Source of the DNA: Carcharhinus longimanus | Taxonomy: Eukaryota | Direction of reading: 5' to 3' | DNA: 63,835 nt | Assembly (NCBI GenBank): GCA_030264375.1 | Contig: JASCQW010000099.1 | Location: forward strand, 50,677,770 to 50,741,604 | In this document: positions 1 through 32,454 of the stretch, piece by piece | Position numbering within the stretch: the first letter of the stretch is position 1 | Layout of the letters: every line of letters starts with the position of its first letter | The notes under the pieces: model-generated | Told to the model about the DNA's origin: nothing | The model's input: the letters and a program-made list of their open reading frames with translations, nothing else | Databases searched by the model: none | Program-made: the position numbers and the translations under genes

Positions 1-1
1 G

Positions 2-1291
2 CCATTTAGCAGACCAAGCATGAGCCAGTTTGATGTTGATCGGCTTTGCGATGAGCATCTGCGCGCTAAACGTGCCCGGGTTGAGAACATAATTCGTGGC
101 ATGAGTCATTCACCAAATGTGGCATTGCGAGGTGGAGATAATGACCGAGATGGGGTGCAGCAGCCTGTGAGTCCCAGAGACAGCTACAGGGAAAACAAAC
201 GTAAGCAGAAGCTTCCCCAACAACAGCAACAGAGTTTTCAACAATTGGTTACAGCCCGGAAAGAGCAAAAGAGAGAAGAACGACGCCAACTGAAGCAACA
301 GCTGGAAGATATGCAGAAGCAACTGCGGCAGCTCCAGGAAAAATTCTACCAAATATACGATAGTACAGATTCTGAGAATGATGAAGACGGCAACCTATCT
401 GAAGACAGCATGCAGTCAGAAACTGCTGATACTAGGGCACATGACAGGTCTGACAATGAGATGTCGGATCTCGATCCAGGACACTTCCTTGATCGGGCTC
501 GTGCTCTTATTAGGGAACAAGAAATGGCGGCAGAAAATGAAAAATTAAAGAGGGATGGTCACTCAAGAAAAAACCAAGGCCCATCCAACTTGCATGCTGA
601 AGGAAAACAGCTAGCTGACACTCTTAAACAGGAACTTAATTCCACCATGTCACAAGTAGTGGACTCTGTAGTCAAAATGTTCTCTAAGTCCTCCCACCAG
701 CTTCCTCAGGTCTTCCCACCTATCCAGATTCCACAGGCACGATTTGCTGTGAATGGAGAGAACCACAACTTCCATACTACTAATCAGCGGCTCCAGTGCT
801 TTGGTGATGTCATCATTTCCAATCCGTTGAACACTTTTGCCAACATGCATGTATCCAATTCTTCAGACCAGACAGAAGCACTGCCTCTAGTGGTACGCAA
901 AAACTCATCGGAGCAGTCTGCCTCCACCCCTTCTCTAGGTGGCCACCACAGCTCTCTTCATCAGTCCCCACTTTCAGCTGCGGCAGGATTTTCATCCCCC
1001 GCATTCCGCCACCCACTGCCTCTCCCTCTTATGGCCTATTCCTTTCAGAGCTCTCTAGGTAATGCTTCCAGCACAGTTTCTGGGAAAGATAGGTCATCTC
1101 CTGAGTCCTTGGACTTGACCAGGGAAACTGCCTGCCTGCGGACCAAAGTGTCATCACACCACATGAACCATCGTCCGTGCTCACCGATGCATCCATCCAA
1201 CACAGCTGAAGGTCTCTCTTTGTCTCTCATTAAATCTGAGTGTGGTGACTTGCAGGATATGGCAGACATTTCACCATATTCTGGAAATACG
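2..1291 (+). CDS. PROX1: PROX1 large coding exon (equivalent of human exon 2), 5'-truncated by the window edge
   Basis: Frame is open from base 2 (PFSRPS-MSQFDVDRLCDEHLRAKRARVENIIRGMSHSP...) to ...LSLIKSECGDLQDMADISPYSGNT and is collinear with vertebrate PROX1 (QQQQQSFQQLV, EQKREERRQLKQQLEDMQKQLRQLQEKF, TEALPLVVRK, SPESLDLTR, IKSE). The ATG at 20 is internal. The exon ends at codon ACG 1289-1291, directly before the U12 donor. Confidence 0.97.
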
Positions 1292-2210
1292 ATATCCTTT
1301 TCTGATAATGTCTTAGTGTTTAATATAGGTGTATGCAGTTAGAGTACAATTTTTTTTCACCTAATTAGTGTCATTGGTACCCCATCAGAAAAATGAGTTG
1401 AACTTTCAGCAGGCAATCTCCATCTCCTGGGGCATTCATTTTATGCACCATCATTACCTGCTTTTGCATAACCCAAACATGTTAGAAGATGCAACAAGTG
1501 CATCACCCCCACCCTCCAATGTTCTGCAAGTTCAGTGCAGCTGCCTGCTATGCATGATTAACCTCTGTTCAGCTGTACACAGAAATCTTTTGTTCTTGTA
1601 TATACAAAGCAAATGATTTTAAAAGCTTGTGAGCACAATCAGAGTGGGCTCAGCTAAACTGAACTTCTTTCACAAGAATTACTTGCTTTTTTCTATATTT
1701 TAGGTAAACGAGTATACTATTTCTTTTTAGCAGAATTTTTGTAATAATAAAAATGATGCTGGATTATCTGCCGCCAATTGCCCTCTGTCAAAGTGCCAGT
1801 TCTCTGTATAGCTTTTCATTTTTCCTTTATCATCTCACTTGGTCAAAGTAATAGAGCTTCTATTTTTATTCTTAAGTTTTGTTGACAGGAGTCAGTAACA
1901 TACTGCGTTTTTTGTCTGTGGCACGCTGTGATATTTTGTGAATAGCTAGTTGCATATTTTACAGTAGCAAAAATGTCTATTTAAGATTGTTATGCTGAAC
2001 TATATATGATAGATTTTGGATGTAACTTGGTGTTAATTAATGGTCTCCTCCTTTCTTTATTGCTCTAGCCCATCAGTTACCTGCCAATGTTGTAGGAATT
2101 AGGAGGTGATTTCCCTATTTAGGTAATTTAGAGAGTGCCCAACTATATTTCCTTCCTATAATAGTTGCATTGTCTTCTTGTATAACAAGCAAATATTGGG
2201 AACAGCTTAC

Positions 2211-2416
2211 AAAAGCAAAATACCTTGGATGCTGGAAACCTGAAATAAAACAGAAAATTATGGAAATACTCAGCAGGTCAAGCAGCGTTTGTGAAGAGAA
2301 AAACAGTTAGAATTTCAGGTCTTTGCTCTTTCACCAATTGACCTGAAATGCAAACTTTTATTTTTCTCTTGAGATGCTGCCTAACCTGCTGAGCGTTTCC
2401 TATATTTTCTGTTTTC
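2211..2416. mobile_element. Inverted-repeat (hairpin) non-autonomous element, Penelope-like-derived
   Basis: Left arm aaaacagaaaattatggaaatactcagcaggtcaagcagc...tttcaggtc is the reverse complement of right arm gacctgaaa...gctgcctaacctgctgagcgtttcctatattttctgtttt. Related copies near 25020 and 57030. Confidence 0.75.
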
Positions 2417-2774
2417 ATTAATGGTAACCCCCTTCTTTGTTAACAATATGGCTCAGTCCTTTTAATGAAACAGAAGAAAAGAATGCAAACCTGGAACAAA
2501 GATGTACATTCTGGACAGCTATGTAAGACTATATCCCATAGAACAAATTTACATTTTATTGTTAGTTATGTTTATTTATTGGGCATAAATTTTATTCCAA
2601 TGATTAAAGGCAGCTGTTGAGTTATTCCCAAGATTTCAGGCGTTATCTTTCATCTCACGAACACACTCTGCATCTTAAGAAAATAGCCTTGAATACAGAA
2701 GGATACAGAATTTGCATATAACAAATTGGAATAGTGCTACAGCATCATGCAGGCGAAGATAGCTGAACTTGCAG

Positions 2775-2877
2775 GCCGGGATTTTACAGCCTCACCCGCC
2801 CCAGAATCGAGGCAGGCAAGGCTCGCAGAGTGGCATTCTCCGTTGGCCTTGGGCAGGCGAGGCAGTAAAATTCCGGC
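2775..2877. mobile_element. ~100-bp MITE with 13-bp terminal inverted repeats (probably PIF/Harbinger-type)
   Basis: GCCGGGATTTTAC (2775-2787) and GTAAAATTCCGGC (2865-2877) are inverted with one mismatch and enclose a GC-rich interior in AT-rich flanks. Confidence 0.65.
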
Positions 2878-4737
2878 AACAATCTCCATGGAATTATTGT
2901 AGAATATGATTAAGAAATAGAAATTTGAGTTATGGCAAGTAACAAAACAGGATGGGCAGAAAAGAATAGATTTGCAATGGTGTTCTAATGAAGTTTGATA
3001 ATTGCTGCAGTGCCAGTGTATTTAATTGAGGGCAATCTGGTAACTAAGATTAAACTTGAAATGAGACAAACGAAAACAAACCCAGATTTAGAAATTATAC
3101 CTGCGACATAGCAATTATCTTTTTTGATCACAAAATTTTGCAGTGCTATTTTCCTGGTAGCAAGAATCATAATAAACATACTTGTAGTAACATTTGTAAA
3201 GCATATACAGCTTTAGATTTTTTAAAGAAACTCTATTATGTCAAACAAAGTGTGAATTAAAATGTCTTTAACTTCCTATACTGAATTGAAAATGATAATT
3301 GGTATTCTAGTTGCAGTCTTTGATCTAACTGTATAGTTCCATATTGTACTCCACTGACATAACGACTCATCTGCCTCTCAGGTAATACTACATATTTGCC
3401 TTGTAAAAACTCTGTATGCAGACTACACACAAACTCATGTGGTGTTTGAATACTGCTTTAGGTTCAGCTGCAGCACAGTACTGCTCTGATCTTTTATTTT
3501 CCTGAGCAGATGTCTTTCATTAATTTATGGATTTATCATCTTTTCTTTTTTTACACCTGGCAGCTGGCTCAAGTTTCAGCAGTTATTGTCTATTTTGCAT
3601 CTCATGTAGAATTGAATGTCATCTGTCTTAACAAAGCTGAAGCTGAAAGAATGAGGTGAGCCACATGAGCTGCTGGGACAGAGCTGTACGTTTTCTTACC
3701 TCCTTAATATTTANNNNNNNNNNNNNNNNNNNNNNNNNNNNNNNNNNNNNNNNNNNNNNNNNNNNNNNNNNNNNNNNNNNNNNNNNNNNNNNNNNNNNNN
3801 NNNNNNNNNNNNNTGTACGTGTTCTTACCTCCTTAATCTTTATTTGTGCTCATTTCTTCTGGCCTTGAATGGGCTGTGCTTGCATTCTGTGCAGCTGTAT
3901 GTTTACCAAATCTATTCCAACATGAGTCATTGTGCGTGTGTAAGTATCCTAGAAACAGCTAGCGCTTTCTTGGGAGAACAGTTGCTTTCAACGTAAGCTT
4001 AAAAGGGAAATTAGCCAATTGGTCAGTCCTGGTTTAGAATATTTTAAGAAGCTGTGGCATCTTTCAGCTGTACTTCAAATTTAGGATAATATTTGTGGTT
4101 ATTGTTGTTTTAAAATACATGTTACCTAACAACATTGTTTGAATGATGCGCTTGATTTTAACAATATTAATGATAGGACTTTTAACAACTGCTAATAAAA
4201 GATGCTACAATCGTATTTCCTTGCATCCAGCTTAGTATAATTGGAGAAAAATGCATAAATACAAATTTACGAAATGGTTAAAAGATGAACCTACTGATTT
4301 TTGTCGTGTTTCATTTTATAAACCAAAGTATTTTATATTCAACCTTTTGTGTTTTTAAAAATCTACTAAGTAAATTGGAATTAATGCATGTAAGTAATAT
4401 TTCAGTGATCATTCATGCTTTAATTTTCAATGCTTTATATTCTTAATTTTTCCTGTTTCCACCTTTCCTTCCTAAATGTAATGATTAATACTGAGGTACT
4501 GTGTTGTAGGCACTGACAACCATTCAGTAACTGACCTTTCCTCTTGTGGAAGCTTAGTGCATATTGGCAGGTTGCTTAACAATCATGAGAAGGAATTATT
4601 GTAGAACACAACTTGTCTTCACTGACTAGTCATGCATGTACATTCTAGCAAGAGTCATTGTGTGGTAATAAAGAGGGGGGGGGCAGCTATTTGGTTTGTT
4701 TACTCCTTCTTAGCCTAGAACACAGAAAATAAAGATA

Positions 4738-5020
4738 AATTGTATTTAAGTGGAACTTTTCATGACCATGTGCATTCCCAAAGTGCTTTATAGCCTACGG
4801 AGCACTTTTTCAGTGTAGTCATGTTGTAATGTAGGAAATGCAGCTGCCAATTTGTGCACAGCAACTTCCCACAAACAATAAAATGATAATAACCAGATAA
4901 ACTGTTTATTGCTGATGGGGGATAACTTCCTTGCTCTTCAAAGTAATGCCATGGAATCTTATGTTCACCTGAACACGCAGATGAGGCCTCTGCAGTGCTT
5001 CATCTGAAATTCCAACATCT
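4738..5020 (-). mobile_element. Deu-domain SINE fragment (SacSINE1/AmnSINE1-like)
   Basis: Contains the reverse complement of the recalled Deu-domain core and tail: cccaaagtgctttatagcc...gtgtagtcatgttgtaatgtaggaaatgcagctgccaatttgtgcacagcaacttcccacaaac...gccatggaatctt. Confidence 0.75.
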
Positions 5021-6354
5021 GCTATGGCAAAGATCAGTTAAGTTTAGGACACTTAGGATTAAATGAGGCCTCCCTACTCCCAAACCTCAACTGTAAGGCT
5101 CAGCACCAGACTTGAGCACGTTTGCTGACAGAGTCATTGAGAGATTTCACTTGGTGCAGTTGGGTTTAGTCTTTGAATTCTTACAATAAGATATGTAAGG
5201 TGATCTTGCCGATTCACATAATCTGATGTAGCCAGCTGGTGTGAGCTTAATACAGTATTAAGACATGCTTAATGTTAAAGTGTTGGACGCATGTTGTGCA
5301 GCTTTCTGCTGCATTATTTTAGACAATATATAAATTATGGTATATGTAGACATCCTGTAGAAATAAGCCCCAAGTATGCATAAAAGAAAAAGCTCCTCTC
5401 TACCAGAAGTGATAATTGGAACACATTTTTCCACTCCAGATTTAATTACTGAAATAAAATATTTTGTAAACGTTTGTAGCAAAGTAAATATTAAATTATG
5501 GAGTGGGGCAATGCTTGCAAATGCTTATAATTAGAGTTGTCAGGATTTATTAATACAGCCGTGGACTGATTGACTTCAGTTTTTATTTTCTCCCTCTTGT
5601 GTCCCATTAAAACAAAAGACTTTAAAATTCAAATGACTGTTCTNNNNNNNNNNNNNNNNNNNNNNNNNNNNNNNNNNNNNNNNNNNNNNNNNNNNNNNNN
5701 NNNNNNNNNNNNNNNNNNNNNNNNNNNNNNNNNNNNNNNNNNNCCATTAAAACAAAAGACTTTAAAATTCACATGACTGTTCTGTGAGGTGATTGCATCC
5801 TCCCAGCAGTGCTCCCAGGAAATGCAGGTTGAAAAAGGATCTAAAATTGTGTTCCTAGTTCTTCAACTGCACTTTCAGCAAGCCCAGCTGCCCGGCATGA
5901 ATGAGTATCCACAGAATACTCTTTAAATTATTTGGTGCTGATTGACCACATTAATGAAAAATTAGCACACACAATACTTGCTATTATTCAGATTTTCCTA
6001 TGATTCACTTTCTAAATGACTGTAAAAGTGAGAAACAGCAATATAATAGATATTTTAAGAATAGCAGAAAATTACACTCGGGGATACATTGTTGCAAGAG
6101 GACACTGGAATGGGGAAAGAGGATATACGTCCATTGTAAGAACTTGCAAACAACTTAGTAAGAACTCTGTTCAGAAATGTTGCTGCCTTTTATTTAATCT
6201 TGTCTTGCGAAGTACTTTTCATTGTAATTTTCCTTATCTATGGCAAGAAGATATAAATGTATTTCCCCTTTGCATCATAGTTACACAAATTAGTCTGTAT
6301 CTTCTAGGGGATAATGATTTTCAAAGGATAGAAAATAAGAACATCTACCTAAAG

Positions 6355-6818
6355 CAGGGCTTCCCAAACTGGGGTCACGAGATGAGATTTCGGGATGCGA
6401 GCTGCAAGGCAACAATTGCTGGTGTGAAGCTTGAACTGATTCCTGACAGCTGCGAGGTCCCTTTTTAAATGTGTTTTATTGGTGATCGTGGCCTAATTGA
6501 CTGCTCTTTGAGGCTCTATTTGCCATTGCATAAAAGCCTATGATTAAATAGATTTTTTTTTGGATAAACCTTTCCTCTTCATGAACTATCCCCTCCTCAC
6601 CTAGCCTCCTGTTCCATCCCCACCCCCTGACAAAGAACCAAAGCCACCCTTTAGGCTTCCCTCCAAATTTCACTCAACAACTGAAGGTCCATCTACCAGC
6701 TCTCATACCTGCCAAATCTCTGTTAACCTCTCCCCTCCTTTTCCTCTCCCTCTCTTTACTACTGTGCCACATGACGCATCAAAATGGGATTACATGAGGA
6801 AAAGATTTAGAAGCCATG
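6355..6818. mobile_element. Possible hAT (Charlie-like) non-autonomous element
   Basis: Begins CAGGGCTTCCCAAACTGGGGTCACGA and ends ...AAAGATTTAGAAGCCATG, a degenerate inverted pair resembling hAT-Charlie ends. No clean target-site duplication seen. Confidence 0.4.
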
Positions 6819-9800
6819 GTTTAATTTAAAGGGTAAGGAATATAAAACTTAATCGAATGTTGAATATTTTCTAATACTGAATAAACCTGCACAGTACTTA
6901 GCTTTATTCAAGCATAACCTATAGATAAGACTATTTAAATTCATGATTCTTATTTAGGAGAGTTGAATAATAGTGCAGTCTCTTCTTTCAGGTATTATCC
7001 TTTTAGAAGCTCAAATAAAATAAGTATGATTGTAACCGGTTTTGATATATTCTGCATCGTCCATAAAAACTGAATGACAAGTTTTTCAAAGCACACTTTG
7101 ATTTGTCACACTAACATGATATCTGCTGAATAAGCATGCATATAAGAACTAAGTTCTTATAAAAATAATTGGATAAAATTTCTTCCTTATTCTTTGTTAT
7201 TTTGATGTTTTTATGCAAATTCTTTTGTGTAATTATTGTCTTCCCTTGGGGCTTTCCATCATCCGTCAGTTAAAACATTCCATCCTCCCGTCAATATAAA
7301 ACTTTCCAACAATGGACCGTAGTAGAGCAGGATAGGTCAGTGATTACAAACAAGCAAATGTTGACCATCTCTGAATGTCACACTCTCAGTCATTTTAAAA
7401 ATTCAGAGGATTGCACATATAAGAAATAAGTGGTTTGCCTGCTACCTTGATTATTTTCTTTTGCTAAGGATGATAGCATTTAGACCCCATGAATCTAAGT
7501 TACAAGTTTTTGGGATGCACAGATGTTTGACATTTGTCGTGTATTTTAAGCACAACATGTTGCTGTTGAGGTAAATTGAATCGCTTTATTATGCCAAACT
7601 CTGGGTGTGTGGCGCAAGAGAAAACCCACAGGAATGGTTTTTGGTGAGATGCCAAAGTTTGTGGGTGGGAGCAAAAATCGTGTTGGAAGACTATGAAAGC
7701 GGGAGATGGAGACTCAAAGGAACATTCCCTAGAATAGAATTAGCGTAAGGCAATGACTGGGACACTGGCACTGAGAAGGGGCGACAAATACCTGGATTGT
7801 GCCAAGGACTCTTGGGGCCTTTGGGAGCACTCCTACTCTTTGCCCATAAGGATTTCAAGGGTAAATGATTTTTCTACACTTGTATCTGTTTCTTCTTGCT
7901 GCTCCATTCTTCCTTCTAGTGTTCTGCAGTCAGGGTGTCTGACCCCATGTAGACATCCCTAGTTCAGAAGTTATAAAGCAGTTGTGAAAACCCTCATTGC
8001 CCATTCAGGATGCAGAGGGTGAGTGATTTTTCTAAATGTATCTGCTGCCTTGCCACCCCATCCACGCCACCTTCTAGTGCTGGGGGAGGGTGCTGTATCA
8101 TTGTTGTTTGCAGTGGGGAATTTATGCAACAGCTTGAGAACTTGGCACTCAACCCACCATCTTACTATACCCTTGCTTGCACCATTCCTACCAGGATGTG
8201 GGGAGGGGTTGAAATGAATTTGACTATCTTCAGCATTGTTTCTCATCCAACAAGATCCTGATACTCTTGATGCCACATTGGTATTTCTTCTTTTGATATT
8301 TCTGAACTTGGTGACATAGTGCACAAAAAAGTGTTTAGCATTATTTAAAGACTGATTTAATGGGGATCTTCAAATGAAACTATTTGCAGGCACCTAATCT
8401 GTTGTATTTTGTGGTTTTCAGCAGTATCAGGCTTGGGTGTAAATGGTGCTTTGAAATAGATTGCTGAATTTTGTAAATATCCACAAAATGATCTATTTNN
8501 NNNNNNNNNNNNNNNNNNNNNNNNNNNNNNNNNNNNNNNNNNNNNNNNNNNNNNNNNNNNNNNNNNNNNNNNNNNNNNNNNNNNNNNNNNNNNNNNNNTG
8601 TTGAATTTCTAGAAACTTTGGAAGTTTGCACAGTATCTCCATCGAAAATCGATTATGCCACTTAACTCCATGCAGAGTAAATTTGATTGAGGTTGTTTTA
8701 TTTCAGACTAGTGCATTATAAAGCCTCAAATGGTATTTCCCATGATGGAAGTTGCTGACGTACAATTTGCCTAATTTATTTCGGCTTGGACCAAGTTAGT
8801 TAGTAAATATCCCTATACAATCAAATAACATTTAAATATTAAATTTATCATTAGATTAATCATTATGGAAATTCACTATCAAAATGATATGCTTGCATGA
8901 ATTTACTATTTATAAACCAAATTTATTTGTCTCAAAATTTGATATGGCATAAATATAAATGAACTATTCTTACTTAACAAATAGGGGTGGGTAATAAATA
9001 CTGCTTTGCCAGTGTTACATCCTCAGAACAAAATTTTAAATTGTGCCAGGAAAGTATTGCAGTAATTGCATGTTTCTTTGCAAAGAAGCAAGATCAAGCC
9101 TGAACTTAAAAATATTCCTTTCCTTATAATCAAATTTTCAAAATGAACAACTGCAATTTTCATAAATTATTCATGATTTCATATTTGAACAGTAACTTTA
9201 TTTTTTATGATGACCTTTATAGCAATAATGCTCCTTAAAGCACCTGAACCATAATATGATGTAAAGTGTGTCTTCCTGAATCAATACACAATGAGTTACT
9301 TGATGAAAACCAAAATATTTATTGAAAGTTACTCCATGGTTTGCAGATTATTAGTAATTTCTCACGTGTTTTAATTTTGGCATTTAATAGCAGTAAGCAC
9401 ATTGCCTTGGAATATATTTAAATAATGTTTTACAATGTCATTATCCTGAATCATGTGAAATCCATAAGTATTGTTTTCAGTTTTTGAGACATCTACTGAG
9501 GCTTGGATTTCTTTTTGGAATAAAAGTACAGTAGTTTTCTTAACCTGGTTATTGTCTTTTAAATTTTCATTATTTGCATCTTCAAGGGGCTTTCAACATG
9601 ATGGATCCAATATAATCTTGTTTGCCAAAGTGCCTCTGGCACAACAGATGCAAGCCTGTAAGATTGCTTTGTGTAACTCATAATCTTGTGGGATTTCACC
9701 ATTTTGGCAAATCTGAAATAGTCATTTCCACGTTAATGATGTTGAAGTTATTTTCCACCAGTAGAGATTTATGAGCTTCTGTTTTACCAGTTACTGACTT

Positions 9801-12058
9801 TTTGTTTTGGATGCGCTATATTTGATCTTAAAAAAATAACCTGATAACATCAATAGGGCATTGGATTCACTACCAAAAGGTCAGACATTATGCCCTGAAA
9901 CTTCTTGCAATAATGGGTATCCACTAGTTTGCCAACAGATCAAAGAAGGACCCTATTCAGATTTTTGTTCAGTCAGGTGAATTGACCAAGAATATCATTG
10001 GCGTAAGTGAAGATCCTTCAACTGAAAAAGTTGCACTCTTCCAAACCAAAGGGAATAGTAAAAGACACAATGTAATTCTAAATGAATTAATGTGCTTCTA
10101 CAAAGTGCACTATATATAAACAATTATTTGATTCTTCCAACCGTGTTCTAAATCTGAGTATGTTCTGAAATTGATAATTTCATAATTTTTGGAGATATTA
10201 AAATAGACTTAGCAATGTTCTGTAACAGATCTGGCCTACACGGATCAACTTTCCACTGAATCTCCAAGTTTATAGTAAAATTTTAAAATTATATCAATAG
10301 TTTAACAATTGTATCTTTACAAACTAATTTTTGTCAGTTGGCTTGTATCCTAGTCTCTTTTGTTTCTATGGTTTTGCTTCAGTCATCTGGACTGAGCACA
10401 GCAGAAATCACAAGTAGGTTTTAATTTATGAATTTCAACTGAAATTGATGAATAGATTGTAAGAGAGAGCAGTCATAAGCACAAATCTTAAGTTGATATA
10501 GTTCAGAATCTCCAAAGTAAAATCCCATGAGGTCAATAATTTTTCACATGAAAATGTCTACTGTTGTGACACTTAGCTCACACTTCTGTAAACATTTTTG
10601 AGGGTCTTGTTTATTTCTGGTTTTTCTGTTATACTGTGCAATGCAAGCAGGCATTGATTCTTTTAATACTCTGCATTTCATGTGCCATTGCAGAACAGCT
10701 TGCTGCACTTCCTTTCATTTGCCATCGTTATTTCACTTATACATTATGACAGATGGCAGTGGAGAGTGTAATGCTCTTTTAGTCTTCCCTATCAGTCTAA
10801 TGGAGGTCACAGAAGGTTTTTCAACTCTTTCCCTCTTGGTACAAGAAGCATGTCAATCATGAGTTATCAACTCTGCCATCATTAAGCTTTGGAAACACAA
10901 AGGACCAGCTTGATCGAGTTGCTAAAGAGTTTGTTCACTCTGATAAGATCTCCTTTACAATAGCTTCACCGTTGAAATAAATTTGTAGATCCTTTTATAA
11001 TAACTTGCGTAGCTTTGGAAGTTAGCAGCATTTTTGCTCTTAAACATACTCTTCCAAAAAAAAACACCCTTTGGAATAACTTCTGGAAAGGGCCCCTTAA
11101 TTAACCTTCCGGGGTCCAGATTGATTTGCTCCACATGTATCTTCATTTCTGATGAATTATAAAGCCATTAATTTGTGGAGGAAATGGTAGGCGATCTGCA
11201 GCACAGATGTGTCAACACCATACTAACGCACAAAACACAAAAGAGTGCCAAGGAAGCTGAATGAAAATCAGAATTGCTAGATTGTTACACTTAGCCTCAC
11301 ATTAAACTTTCTCCTGGGAACTATTTTAGGAAGCTTCTGTCTACAGAGCTAAAGGGTAATAATATTTGCAGATAAATAGGATTCTTTATCATTGTAAGAG
11401 AGAATTTATTGATCAGCTGTCCCCTGGGGACTTTTTGACAGTCAGAAAATGAACCTTTGATACATCTTGGTTCAGTACCCTTGTGCAGGTCAGATATCTC
11501 CAGATCTACCCAGTGACCTCTCTTTGTAAGATTCCTAGGCATACAATGTTCTCTGCTATGAGTCAAGATGTTTAATTTTTAACTTTATAATAATACCCTT
11601 TTTGTTTTGTGAATTTTTTTGCATTTTGAACTTTCTTGTTAAATTTTAATTCAGATTGTGAATTATTCTGTTACAACATATTCGTTGTTTTCATGTTGTG
11701 TTGGAGCTGATGAATAGCTTTATTTGTGGATTAATGACAATTTATGGCTCTTGATTGTAAACATTCTTATATTCATCATTACAATTCATTGCGTGGTACA
11801 ATATTACTCTCTACGTAATACTGAAGAAACACATTTCTTAAAAGCATTTTTTTTCAAATAAGCAAACTTTTATTGGATAAACCTAATGTTGAATGAATGC
11901 ATATCATCAGATGATTGAATATCAGCAGCTCATGTTCATTTTGGTTTGTTCACTCATTTGCCTAGTCATTAAGGGGTTGTTCTGAAAGCTCTATCCTCTC
12001 CAAATAGCCTTGTTTCTGTAATTGCTTTGTATATTTTCCTTGACAAACAGCATCTCAC

Positions 12059-12166
12059 ATACAGGAAGGACTGTCACCTAATCACCTGAAAAAGGCCAAG
12101 TTGATGTTCTTCTACACCCGGTACCCTAGTTCCAACATGCTGAAGATGTTCTTCTCTGATGTGAAG
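12059..12166 (+). CDS. PROX1: PROX1 exon encoding the start of the atypical homeodomain (36 aa)
   Basis: 108 nt translating [36 protein letters not shown], followed by a canonical donor AAG|GTAAGC. Confidence 0.97.
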
Positions 12167-14614: not shown

Positions 14615-15243
14615 AGAGTCATAGTCATAGAGGTTAACAGCATGGAAACAGGCTCTTCAGCCCAACTTGTCTGTGCTGCCCTTTTAAACCCCTCTAATCC
14701 CAATTGCCCGCATTTGGCCCATATCCCTCTAAATACATCTTACCCATGTAACTATCTAAATGGTTTTTAAAAGACAAAATTGTACCAGCCATTACTCCTA
14801 CCTCTGGCAGCTTGTTCCAGACACTCACCACCCTCTATGTGGAAAAAAAAAATTGCCCCTCTGGACACTTTATATTTCTCCCTCTCACCTTAAACCCATG
14901 CCCTCTAGTTTTAGACTCCCTTACTTTTGGGGAAAGATATTGACTATCTAGCTGATCTGTGCCCCTCATTATTTTATAGACCTCTACAAGATCACTCCTC
15001 AGCCTCCTACGCTTCAGAGAAAAAAGTTCCAATCTATCCAGCGTTGCCTTATAACTCAACCCATCAAGTCCCGGTAGCATCCTTCTGCATTCTTTTCAGT
15101 TTAATAATATCCTTTCTATAATAGGGTGACCAGAACTGTACACAGTATTCCAAGCGTGGCCTTACCAATGTCTTGCACAATTTCAACAAGACGTCCCAAC
15201 TCCTGTATTCAATGTTCTGATCGGTGAAACCAAGCATGCCACA
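14615..15243 (-). mobile_element. CR1-clade LINE 3' fragment (end of ORF2 plus 3'UTR)
   Basis: Reverse translation MLPGLDGLSYKATLDRLELFSLKRRRLRSDLVEVYKIMRG...SKTRGH is the typical CR1 ORF2 C-terminus. The tail ends in (ctatga)n-like repeats. Confidence 0.9.
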
Positions 15244-27040: not shown

Positions 27041-27235
27041 TTTAATAGGTGCATCACCTCGCAGCTTATCAAGTGGTTCAGCAATTTCCGAGAATTTTAC
27101 TACATACAGATGGAGAAGTTCGCTCGTCAGTCCATTAATGATGGAGTAACAAGCACCGAGGAGTTAACTGTCTCCCGTGACTCTGAACTCTTCAGAGCCT
27201 TGAATATGCACTACAACAAAGCAAACGATTTTGAG
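27041..27235 (+). CDS. PROX1: PROX1 exon encoding the homeodomain recognition helix and start of the Prospero domain (65 aa)
   Basis: Acceptor ttttcctattgacag|; 195 nt translating FNRCITSQLIKWFSNFREFYYIQMEKFARQSINDGVTSTEELTVSRDSELFRALNMHYNKANDFE; donor GAG|GTACAG. Confidence 0.98.
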
Positions 27236-29563: not shown

Positions 29564-32454
29564 TACGATTTACTATTTAATGCTCTCCTAGTTGGTTGTT
29601 TTTCCCCTCCTTCTCCCCTCAACCCCCATTTCTAATCAGAGGAAAAAAAGATATGCAACAGCATGCGACCAGGCTAGTGAGGCTATTCTGTGCATATCAC
29701 CTAACTGCTTAAACTCCACACGTCAAAGTAGAATTATACCAATGGTCATTAAGGTTGCCGTGTTACTGTTTAATTTCCATGTCACTCAGCACAGCTTTAA
29801 CATTAACTAAACAGCTATGTACAATTGCATTAGACTACAGATTCATCATATTCTTGTTGAATAGTGGTGCAGGCTCAAGGGGCTGAATGGCCTACTTCTC
29901 CTATTTTGTATGTTCATATGTATGTTCATATGGATTCATTATTCCCTAAATGTATCTACTCTATTGACAGCCAGTCAGAAAATGACAAAGCAGCAATTTT
30001 ACAAAATGACCAGCTTCCCTCCTGTCCAAAGGGACAGATATCAATTGTCTTTTGCTCAAGACCTCTACTGACATTAACAAGAACTGATTTTCTTAACAAG
30101 TAGTTTGGGATGGGCAGCCCAGCATAATACTTTTGCTTCCCTGGAATTGTGACAATTCCTTCATATTAAAGCTATCTTTGACCTTTTAAAGCACAATGCT
30201 GCATAACTGCTGGGAGATCAAGGTTATCCTCTGCACCCCTGGTTAATGGTGCATGTACTGTCCCAGGACACCAGATGAGAACCACTTTAATGAGATTCAT
30301 TCATTACTATCATTGAGTACATCACCAGCATGTTGAAGGTGCACTACGAGTGTTTGAATCAATCTATAAAGGAGATTCAAAATTGATATGGAGGAGAAAG
30401 AGGAAGGGGACTGGGAGGAGTATGGAGGTGAAGGAGTTATGGCTGAAATTTCTGTATTTTGTTTTGGAATCCAATCATAATCCCAGAAATAGACGACCTG
30501 TTGGTTTGACATCTATAAGCAGAAAAATGTTGAACGTAAATCTGACTTTGTAGGGTTTACAATGTTTGTTTGCCACCAGATTCCCTCTGCATCCTTCAGC
30601 TCAAAAATTTGGGCTACGTTAATGATATCTTAAATTAAGTACAGAAAGAGCAATGGAGAGGGGAGGAATATTGAAATGAGAGGGGGAAAAAGAGAAAGAA
30701 AGGAAAGTGTTTTTAAAAAAGCTTGCATTTAAAAAAAAAAATTAAAACCTGAAGGAATGAGAGTCCACATACATGATAGTTAATGTTCATTGTTAGAGGG
30801 ATTATTTGGCAAAAATTAGCATTTATCATATCTTCAAAAAGATACTTGCGTTTGTCATATCAAGACTTTTTTTATGTACTTCAAACCATTCTTCTTTTAA
30901 TAGGCAAATTTCTACAAAAATGGAGGCTAAGGGTGAGAAGTTATTTTCATAAAGCTAACAGTGGAGTAGTGTAACTAGTACTGCAACTTTTGGGCATTCG
31001 CATTTAACTTCTCATCTGTTCCCAACCTGAAGTGACTACCATTTTCCCAATGATAACAGTGAGCACCATTTAGCCCAGCAAATTCTCACCTGATCGATTT
31101 AGAAGGAGCAGCTAATGGAAAAAAAACACTGCACCCATGAATTTATGAATAGCAGATGACTCTTATTACTGAAGGATGGCATACAACTTGTGGAAAAAGG
31201 TAGTGTGGTGGATGTTATTTTGTTTGATGTTCAGTCTGAAAGTATCCTTAACATCAAACTTGTGGCTAAACAGAGAGCTTTTGAAATGGAGGGTGTTTCT
31301 AAATGGTTACTAATAGGAGATAAATAATTACTTCAGTCAATGGCAGAATTTCAAATTGGCCAGCCATGGGTAATGGAATACCACACAGATCAGTCAGGAA
31401 CAGCCAGATCTCTGATTTTTGTTAGTCTCTGTCTTAATCTCAATTGTCCTTCTCTTTGTACCCTTAGAGATTGGCAGCCAAAATTAAATGTATGGAAAAT
31501 AAAGTTACTGTTGGGTTGAAAAATATCTAAGCATGACCTAAAAAATAAAAGTTGTGGTGGTCTTGTTGTTCAGCAGCCTGTCCCCCAGGTCTCCCACCCA
31601 CCATATGGTCAGCAAGGGCTCGAAGGCCACATTAGCTTTTCTGTGTGCCTTCGCATTGAGGATATCCAGCAAATAAAAGAACAGGAGCCAGAAAGCCTTA
31701 AGTGATTCAGTTTACTCCCTCCCTCAACACATTTCAATGGTGGTGTCTGTCCTGTGCATTCTGCATACTCGGGGTATGTCAACCCACCATTTGCCACCAC
31801 AGAAAGTTCCAGAAATCCAAAAATAGCATTTTTTTTAAAAAAAAGATAGAAAACCAATAACCTGAGTTTGGCTCCTTTCCTTGAATCTTGTGTCAATGGA
31901 ATGTTCAGTTCCCCCCAGTGTAAGGAAAATTAGCCCTCGTAAAGATGAAATTTGGTGTCATTGTACTTATAAAAGTATTATGTAGAATCACTTGTCACTG
32001 CATGTGTCCTTGAGTTTGGAAGTCCTCTTGTGTCTGAACCATATCAGAAGTACTTGGCCTTCATCTTAATGCATGCTTGCACATTCTCCAGCTTCAAAGC
32101 TGATATTGGAGATGCACTCTGATACTTGGAGATTTTTCTTTTGATTTGCAGTGATTAGAAGAATTTTCACAATCCATTACCAAACATGTATGGTGGGGGT
32201 GGAAGAGAAAAATATATTGAATTATTCTTAGAACTGCCATAGGAAGAAAATCTATTGCTGACTAAGTGCAGTACAAAGTAACAGCAGAACCAAATGAAAA
32301 TGTTTCATTGATTTCTACAAGCAATGTTTGATACGCAACTATCACTCCATGAAATAGACAAGTAAATGCAGTTGTTTTTTTCCAATAAATGCTCGTCTCT
32401 TTTTGAGAGTAATGAACCTAATTGAATTGAAGTAAATTACTCATGTAAATGACA

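Follow-up and report, generated by a model that had tools for sequence, protein, structure and literature searches.

A U12-type AT-AC intron precedes the homeo-prospero domain of PROX1 in a cartilaginous fish

The PROX1 gene of the shark Carcharhinus longimanus lies partly within a 63,835-nucleotide (nt) stretch of contig JASCQW010000099.1 (positions 50,677,770 to 50,741,604, referred to here as the window). We are highly confident that it carries a conserved AT-AC intron of cartilaginous-fish PROX1, which is excised at the junction 1291^12059 in assembled transcripts, likely by the minor (U12-dependent) spliceosome; removal by this machinery is considered likely because the AT-AC intron is absent from assembled transcripts at exactly those ends. 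The intron occupies positions 1292-12058 of the forward strand (+), is 10,767 nt long and in phase 0, and has a GC content of 36% with three assembly gaps (300 N). The upstream exon ends at 1291 with TCT GGA AAT ACG (...GGAAATACG), after which the intron opens with ATATCCTTTT at 1292. A branch motif, TTTTCCTTGAC, is found at 12034-12044, where the sole A (12043) is placed 15 nt from the intron end; the intron closes with ...CATCTCAC at 12058, the AC acceptor being 12057-12058, and exon 3 begins ATA CAG GAA GGA at 12059. An earlier reading of this DNA (the sequence-only reading) had named 1291, 1292, the branch A at 12043, 12058 and 12059, and every one of these coordinates proved correct when the sequence was re-read.

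Contigs from four runs (X1 to X4, from 24 listed) were aligned to window positions 700-3300; such contigs report presence rather than level, and rare forms are dropped from them. In all four runs a contig matches the genome up to 1294 and then continues with letters that no longer match, the X1 contig (9,357 nt) showing one difference in 595 positions. The letters that follow 1294 in X1 and X2 are those of window positions 12062-12091, within exon 3, and the proposed junction 1291^12059 is thereby shown in assembled transcript contigs. Since the intron and exon 3 both begin with ATA, four equivalent junction registers fit, of which only 1292-12058 carries splice signals; the AT and AC ends are thus used in the X1 and X2 contigs, by the sole register that has signals. 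No processed full-length copy that could mimic the junction was found in the genome, where exon 3 has at least three matches and exons 4 and 5 at least two each. The third exon 3 match (L005:1504-1582, near G000:C109:9045408) consists of 72 nt with 97% identity to PROX1 exon 3 and runs, without an intron, into the opening 7 nt of exon 4; it is likely a fragment of processed messenger RNA, and a third PROX gene was rejected as a reading of it. Low-depth intronic contigs (X3 at 1325-1487; X1 and X3 at 2907-3081) may be either pre-messenger RNA or DNA and were for this reason set aside as evidence of retention.

The same contigs bear on whether the intron could be a twintron, as in fly prospero, whereby the major spliceosome would, in some tissues, also use a nested GT at 1329 and AG at 12050 and so add 15 residues before the homeodomain. 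This hypothetical GT-AG intron (1329..12050, +), which has no contig support, keeps the frame without a stop, and its donor TAG/GTGTAT agrees with five of nine U2 consensus positions, equal to the real exon 4 donor; the stingray model P0003 (...GNASYIQ) may also indicate that a relative has a similar acceptor lying 8 nt upstream. However, no contig in the four runs extends the exon to 1328, with the proviso that rare forms can be lost, and depth in the bin 1309-1395 is zero in X1, X2 and X4 and in X3 is fully due to the single unspliced contig at 1325-1487. One nested in-frame pair is expected by chance, because 20 of the 72 combinations of nearby GT/GC donors (12, at 1230-1342) and AG acceptors (6, at 11990-12100) keep the frame. 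In addition, AG is absent from the final 40 nt of the intron in the paralog described below, and PMC3291851 describes the prospero twintron as limited to insects. It is therefore very unlikely that the nested pair is used in this way. We likewise attach very little credence to a twintron of separate origin from that of insects, in which two spliceosomes would set the ratio of two PROX1 forms differing by the 15 residues ISFSDNVLVFNIASH.

Excision of the whole AT-AC intron agrees with its signals, and by its sequence the intron is of the U12 type. We used as criteria for U12 AT-AC introns the 5' splice site RTATCCTTT, the branch site TTCCTTRAC and a branch near the 3' end with no pyrimidine tract between the two; the donor matches the first of these sequences and the branch TTTTCCTTGACA the second. 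The weight-matrix scores are published values for identical 12-mers (PMC6717393, supplement 1): the donor 12-mer ACGATATCCTTT, shared with the human ZC3H4 minor intron, scores 98.9 of 100, and the branch 12-mer, shared with PROX2, Vbp1 and Scn2a, scores 93.0; these values uphold the class assigned in the sequence-only reading. The spacer between the branch A and the acceptor (AAACAGCATCTC, 15 nt) has no pyrimidine tract and lies inside the 40-nt scoring window. A U1-type donor following AT reads A(A/G)GT at +3 to +6. The donor here, ATATCCTT, is the full U12 consensus and lacks that motif, which argues against AT-AC ends that are nevertheless handled by the major spliceosome, as in the rare U2-type AT-AC introns documented in the literature. 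The slightly long branch distance and a short pyrimidine run 15-25 nt from the intron end would be in keeping with such removal, but the run is the U12 branch site itself, no tract follows it, and orthologous PROX introns are classed as U12 in published work. We regard removal by the major spliceosome as extremely improbable.

Genes for the U11, U12 and U6atac small nuclear RNAs are present in the genome with scores above the Rfam cut-off (114, 142 and 134 bits, respectively). U6atac-like copies above the cut-off occur at 16 places in this assembly (G000), against three for U12 and two for U11, and most of the 16 are probably pseudogenes. The U12-type 5' splice site ATATCCTTTT (1292..1301, +) is complementary to the 5' end of this genome's U11, with predicted pairing to intron positions +3 to +10 (eight base pairs including one G-U), and to the AAAGGA of U6atac, which complements +4 to +9 exactly. 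Only this exact AAAGGA/TCCTTT complement was used for U6atac, because the folding program placed it in a register other than the textbook one. The branch site TATTTTCCTTGAC (12032..12044, +) is predicted to form an 11-base-pair helix with U12 over 12032-12042 that leaves A12043, the predicted branch nucleotide, unpaired.

Rarity of the motifs within the window was discarded as evidence for the intron, since counts are near chance: there are four free matches to ATATCCTTT against 1.24 expected in the 64 kb (one of 100 shuffles reached four), and one match to the branch motif with AC where 0.68 are expected, a count that 48 of 100 shuffles reach. Two extra copies of ATATCCTTT, at 15107 and 22672, have one repeat context in common and were rejected as splice sites on that account. 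The case for the intron is instead one of placement, because protein homology sets both exon borders; at borders fixed in this way, a simple base-composition model gives probabilities of 3.3e-5 for the donor and 7.3e-6 for the branch with AC. The sequence GTATCCTTAAC at 31242-31252, where the U12 donor consensus and the branch consensus overlap within the final 75-kb intron, is a single chance-level match, probably fortuitous, and was not accepted as a splice signal.

The upstream exon is 94-97% identical to prox1/prox1a entries of sharks, rays and skates and about 75-80% identical to bony vertebrates; on this homology the host gene is PROX1, as had been proposed, and the genome is likely that of a cartilaginous fish. 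The window begins inside the first coding exon, a large one with 1,713 coding nt, the 3' part of which is assigned by homology to 1..1291 (+); its ATG is 422 nt upstream of the window start, and it is in frame 2, open to 1339. Exon 3 (12059..12166, +; 108 nt), placed by homology and transcript contigs, ends at a GTAAGC donor, and exon 4 of the homeo-prospero domain (27041..27235, +; 195 nt), placed by homology, has AG and GT borders. The last exon is outside the window, at G000:C99:50780375, after an intron of 75,370 nt. The remaining two coding introns are GT-AG, and the AT-AC join gives a coding sequence of 2,202 nt (733 residues, one stop). From its fourth codon exon 3 matches positions 1-33 of Pfam HPD, and also the human PROX1 structure 2LMD, which places the AT-AC intron immediately 5' of the homeo-prospero domain and confirms its predicted position before the homeodomain. 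The skate model P0004 carries 17 additional residues at the boundary of its last two exons, a site different from that of the minor intron. In a crude test against 105 kb of other loci, 1292-12058 was the most repeat-poor segment (2.4%, against 3-11% in other segments). Introns of zebrafish prox1a are reported to contain conserved enhancers (bioRxiv 10.1101/2023.08.21.550483), although no such element was identified in the shark intron, and the whole window has no Rfam match at gathering score that would indicate structured RNA.

The join is poorly served by conventional gene models. None of the 72 nearby GT/GC-AG pairs has the length of the AT-AC join and none yields the same protein, and 30 of the 120 homologs listed (of 537 matches) carry indels at the junction, as expected if gene finders limited to GT-AG mis-model it. 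Among the same 120, 70 show the clean pattern, two join cleanly but with a different residue (SQIQ), 11 run on into intron sequence and seven are unclassed. The claim that the AT-AC join restores the alignment with no indel thus stands against the skate model P0004 and 72 of the 120, and fails against the three closest database models (P0001-P0003), which have two additional residues at the junction. This would be explained if the main junction were two codons longer, as in these models (TIYIQ, ASYIQ), with 1291^12059 as a minor form; extra residues ending in Y before (M/I)QEG are found in 24 of the 120. However, the join is clean in the X1 and X2 contigs, and the extra residues vary between models and end in the intron-closing TAC, as forced splice sites would give. 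Moreover, if the acceptor in the window were moved 6 nt upstream, the intron would end in CA, and the AG found 8 nt upstream breaks the reading frame when combined with the AT donor. A longer main junction is accordingly highly unlikely. Six frog PROX1 models (P0029, P0031, P0034, P0036, P0039 and P0066) retain the U12 donor but have FY or LY inserted ahead of MQ, perhaps through a real alternative acceptor 6 nt upstream or as an effect of annotation. Seven of 17 Logan-sourced homologs cross the junction, all seven cleanly as STIQEG, nine continue into intron sequence as ISF, the translation of ATATCCTTT, and one ends earlier. For annotation the AT-AC join matters because the right protein is reached by no choice of GT-AG or GC-AG ends nearby, and because a quarter of the 120 closest listed PROX1 proteins, including three of the four nearest, have indels.

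Several observations weigh against removal of this intron as a U12-type AT-AC intron. The two residues added in the three closest models, among the 120 listed of 537, have been considered above. The transcript evidence covers the donor side only and consists of contigs rather than reads; X2 is recorded as RNA whereas for X1, X3 and X4 this is a guess, X2 to X4 come from relatives, and the unmatched contig letters past the donor were examined in two of the four runs (X1 and X2). The U11 pairing energy is weakly specific, being equalled or bettered by 1.3% of 20,990 sampled window 12-mers; for this reason the pairing serves as a consistency check only, and the duplex energy was rejected as a discriminator. 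The branch-acceptor distance, 15 nt after the A, exceeds the optimum of 11-13 nt given in PMC3584512. Finally, Table S7 of PMC6717393 lists the mouse Prox1 and Prox2 minor introns as 100% “cryptic” at both 5' and 3' ends, with values for Prox1 in four tissues, which as printed speaks against constitutive AT-AC use in mouse. These values may well be an effect of read alignment: ten of 12 other genes with near-100% “cryptic” calls, hand-picked from the first of the table's seven parts, possess a donor of the AT type in mouse, and AT-AC introns make up about 24% of minor introns according to the same paper.

If the minor spliceosome removes this intron, the steps would follow its established pathway (PMC3584512) and chemistry. 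The U11/U12 particle would recognise the donor, at +3 to +10, together with the branch site, leaving A12043 unpaired, and U6atac would then displace U11 at +4 to +9. A12043 would attack the first A of the intron, and two transesterifications would join Thr-571 to Ile-572. Production of PROX1 would on this reasoning depend on the minor spliceosome. In conceptual translation a retained intron adds 16 residues up to an in-frame TAG (1340..1342, +), giving a product of 587 residues without the homeo-prospero domain; unspliced RNA would stop there, before the DNA-binding part, because the whole domain is encoded downstream. As the stop lies two exon junctions upstream of the end, such RNA is predicted to be a target of decay, or may otherwise yield the 587-residue protein with no DNA-binding domain.

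The shark PROX1 intron is an ordinary local copy of one already described from flies to humans. Table 2 of PMC2831892 lists pros/PROX1 as AT-AC, a twintron in fly and U12 in human, and according to PMC3291851 only one other minor intron is, like it, shared by every insect and vertebrate genome analysed there; the sites and lengths of the human and mouse PROX1 and PROX2 minor introns are given in PMC6717393, and PMC3564746 and PMC2952598 belong to the related literature. The family precedent for a U12 intron before the homeodomain is therefore published for fly prospero and for human and mouse PROX1 and PROX2. A literature search, with intron databases outside its scope, found no publication on this PROX1 intron in a cartilaginous fish. 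With the present case a cartilaginous fish, in which both PROX paralogs have it, joins the animals that retain one of the most stable minor introns; its position means that if splicing fails, a key developmental regulator loses its entire DNA-binding domain, a pattern previously described.

The paralog (G000:C112:12449336-12442663, minus strand) is interrupted at the same codon boundary by a phase-0 AT-AC intron measuring 6,674 nt, with ends ATATCCTTTT...TTTCCTTAACCAATCTTTAC and the branch TTTCCTTAAC 10 nt before the exon. We call this gene PROX2-like because its donor 12-mer, CACATATCCTTT, is identical to that of human and mouse PROX2. No blastn match at E 1e-3 was found between the two introns. 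Orthologs were compared by protein junction and published 12-mers. The Drosophila prospero twintron (PMC2831892, PMC3291851, PMC3564746) likewise has a U12 AT-AC intron in the orthologous position ahead of the homeodomain, but its nested GT-AG intron is used in the fly to give a protein longer by 29 residues, whereas no use of the nested pair is seen in the shark contigs. The human and mouse PROX2 minor introns (PMC6717393, supplement 1) belong to the paralogous gene and measure 4.0-4.4 kb, against 6,674 nt in the paralog of this genome; they have the branch 12-mer of shark PROX1 and the donor 12-mer of the shark paralog. The human and mouse PROX1 introns differ from that of the shark in length (6,904 and 6,998 nt in the supplements of PMC6717393, against 10,767 nt), in their branch (TTTTCCTTAACC rather than TTTTCCTTGACA) and in the last exon codon (GCA rather than ACG), but have in common with it the AT donor ATATCCTTT, a U12 branch site, the same gene and aligned proteins that join at the same residue.

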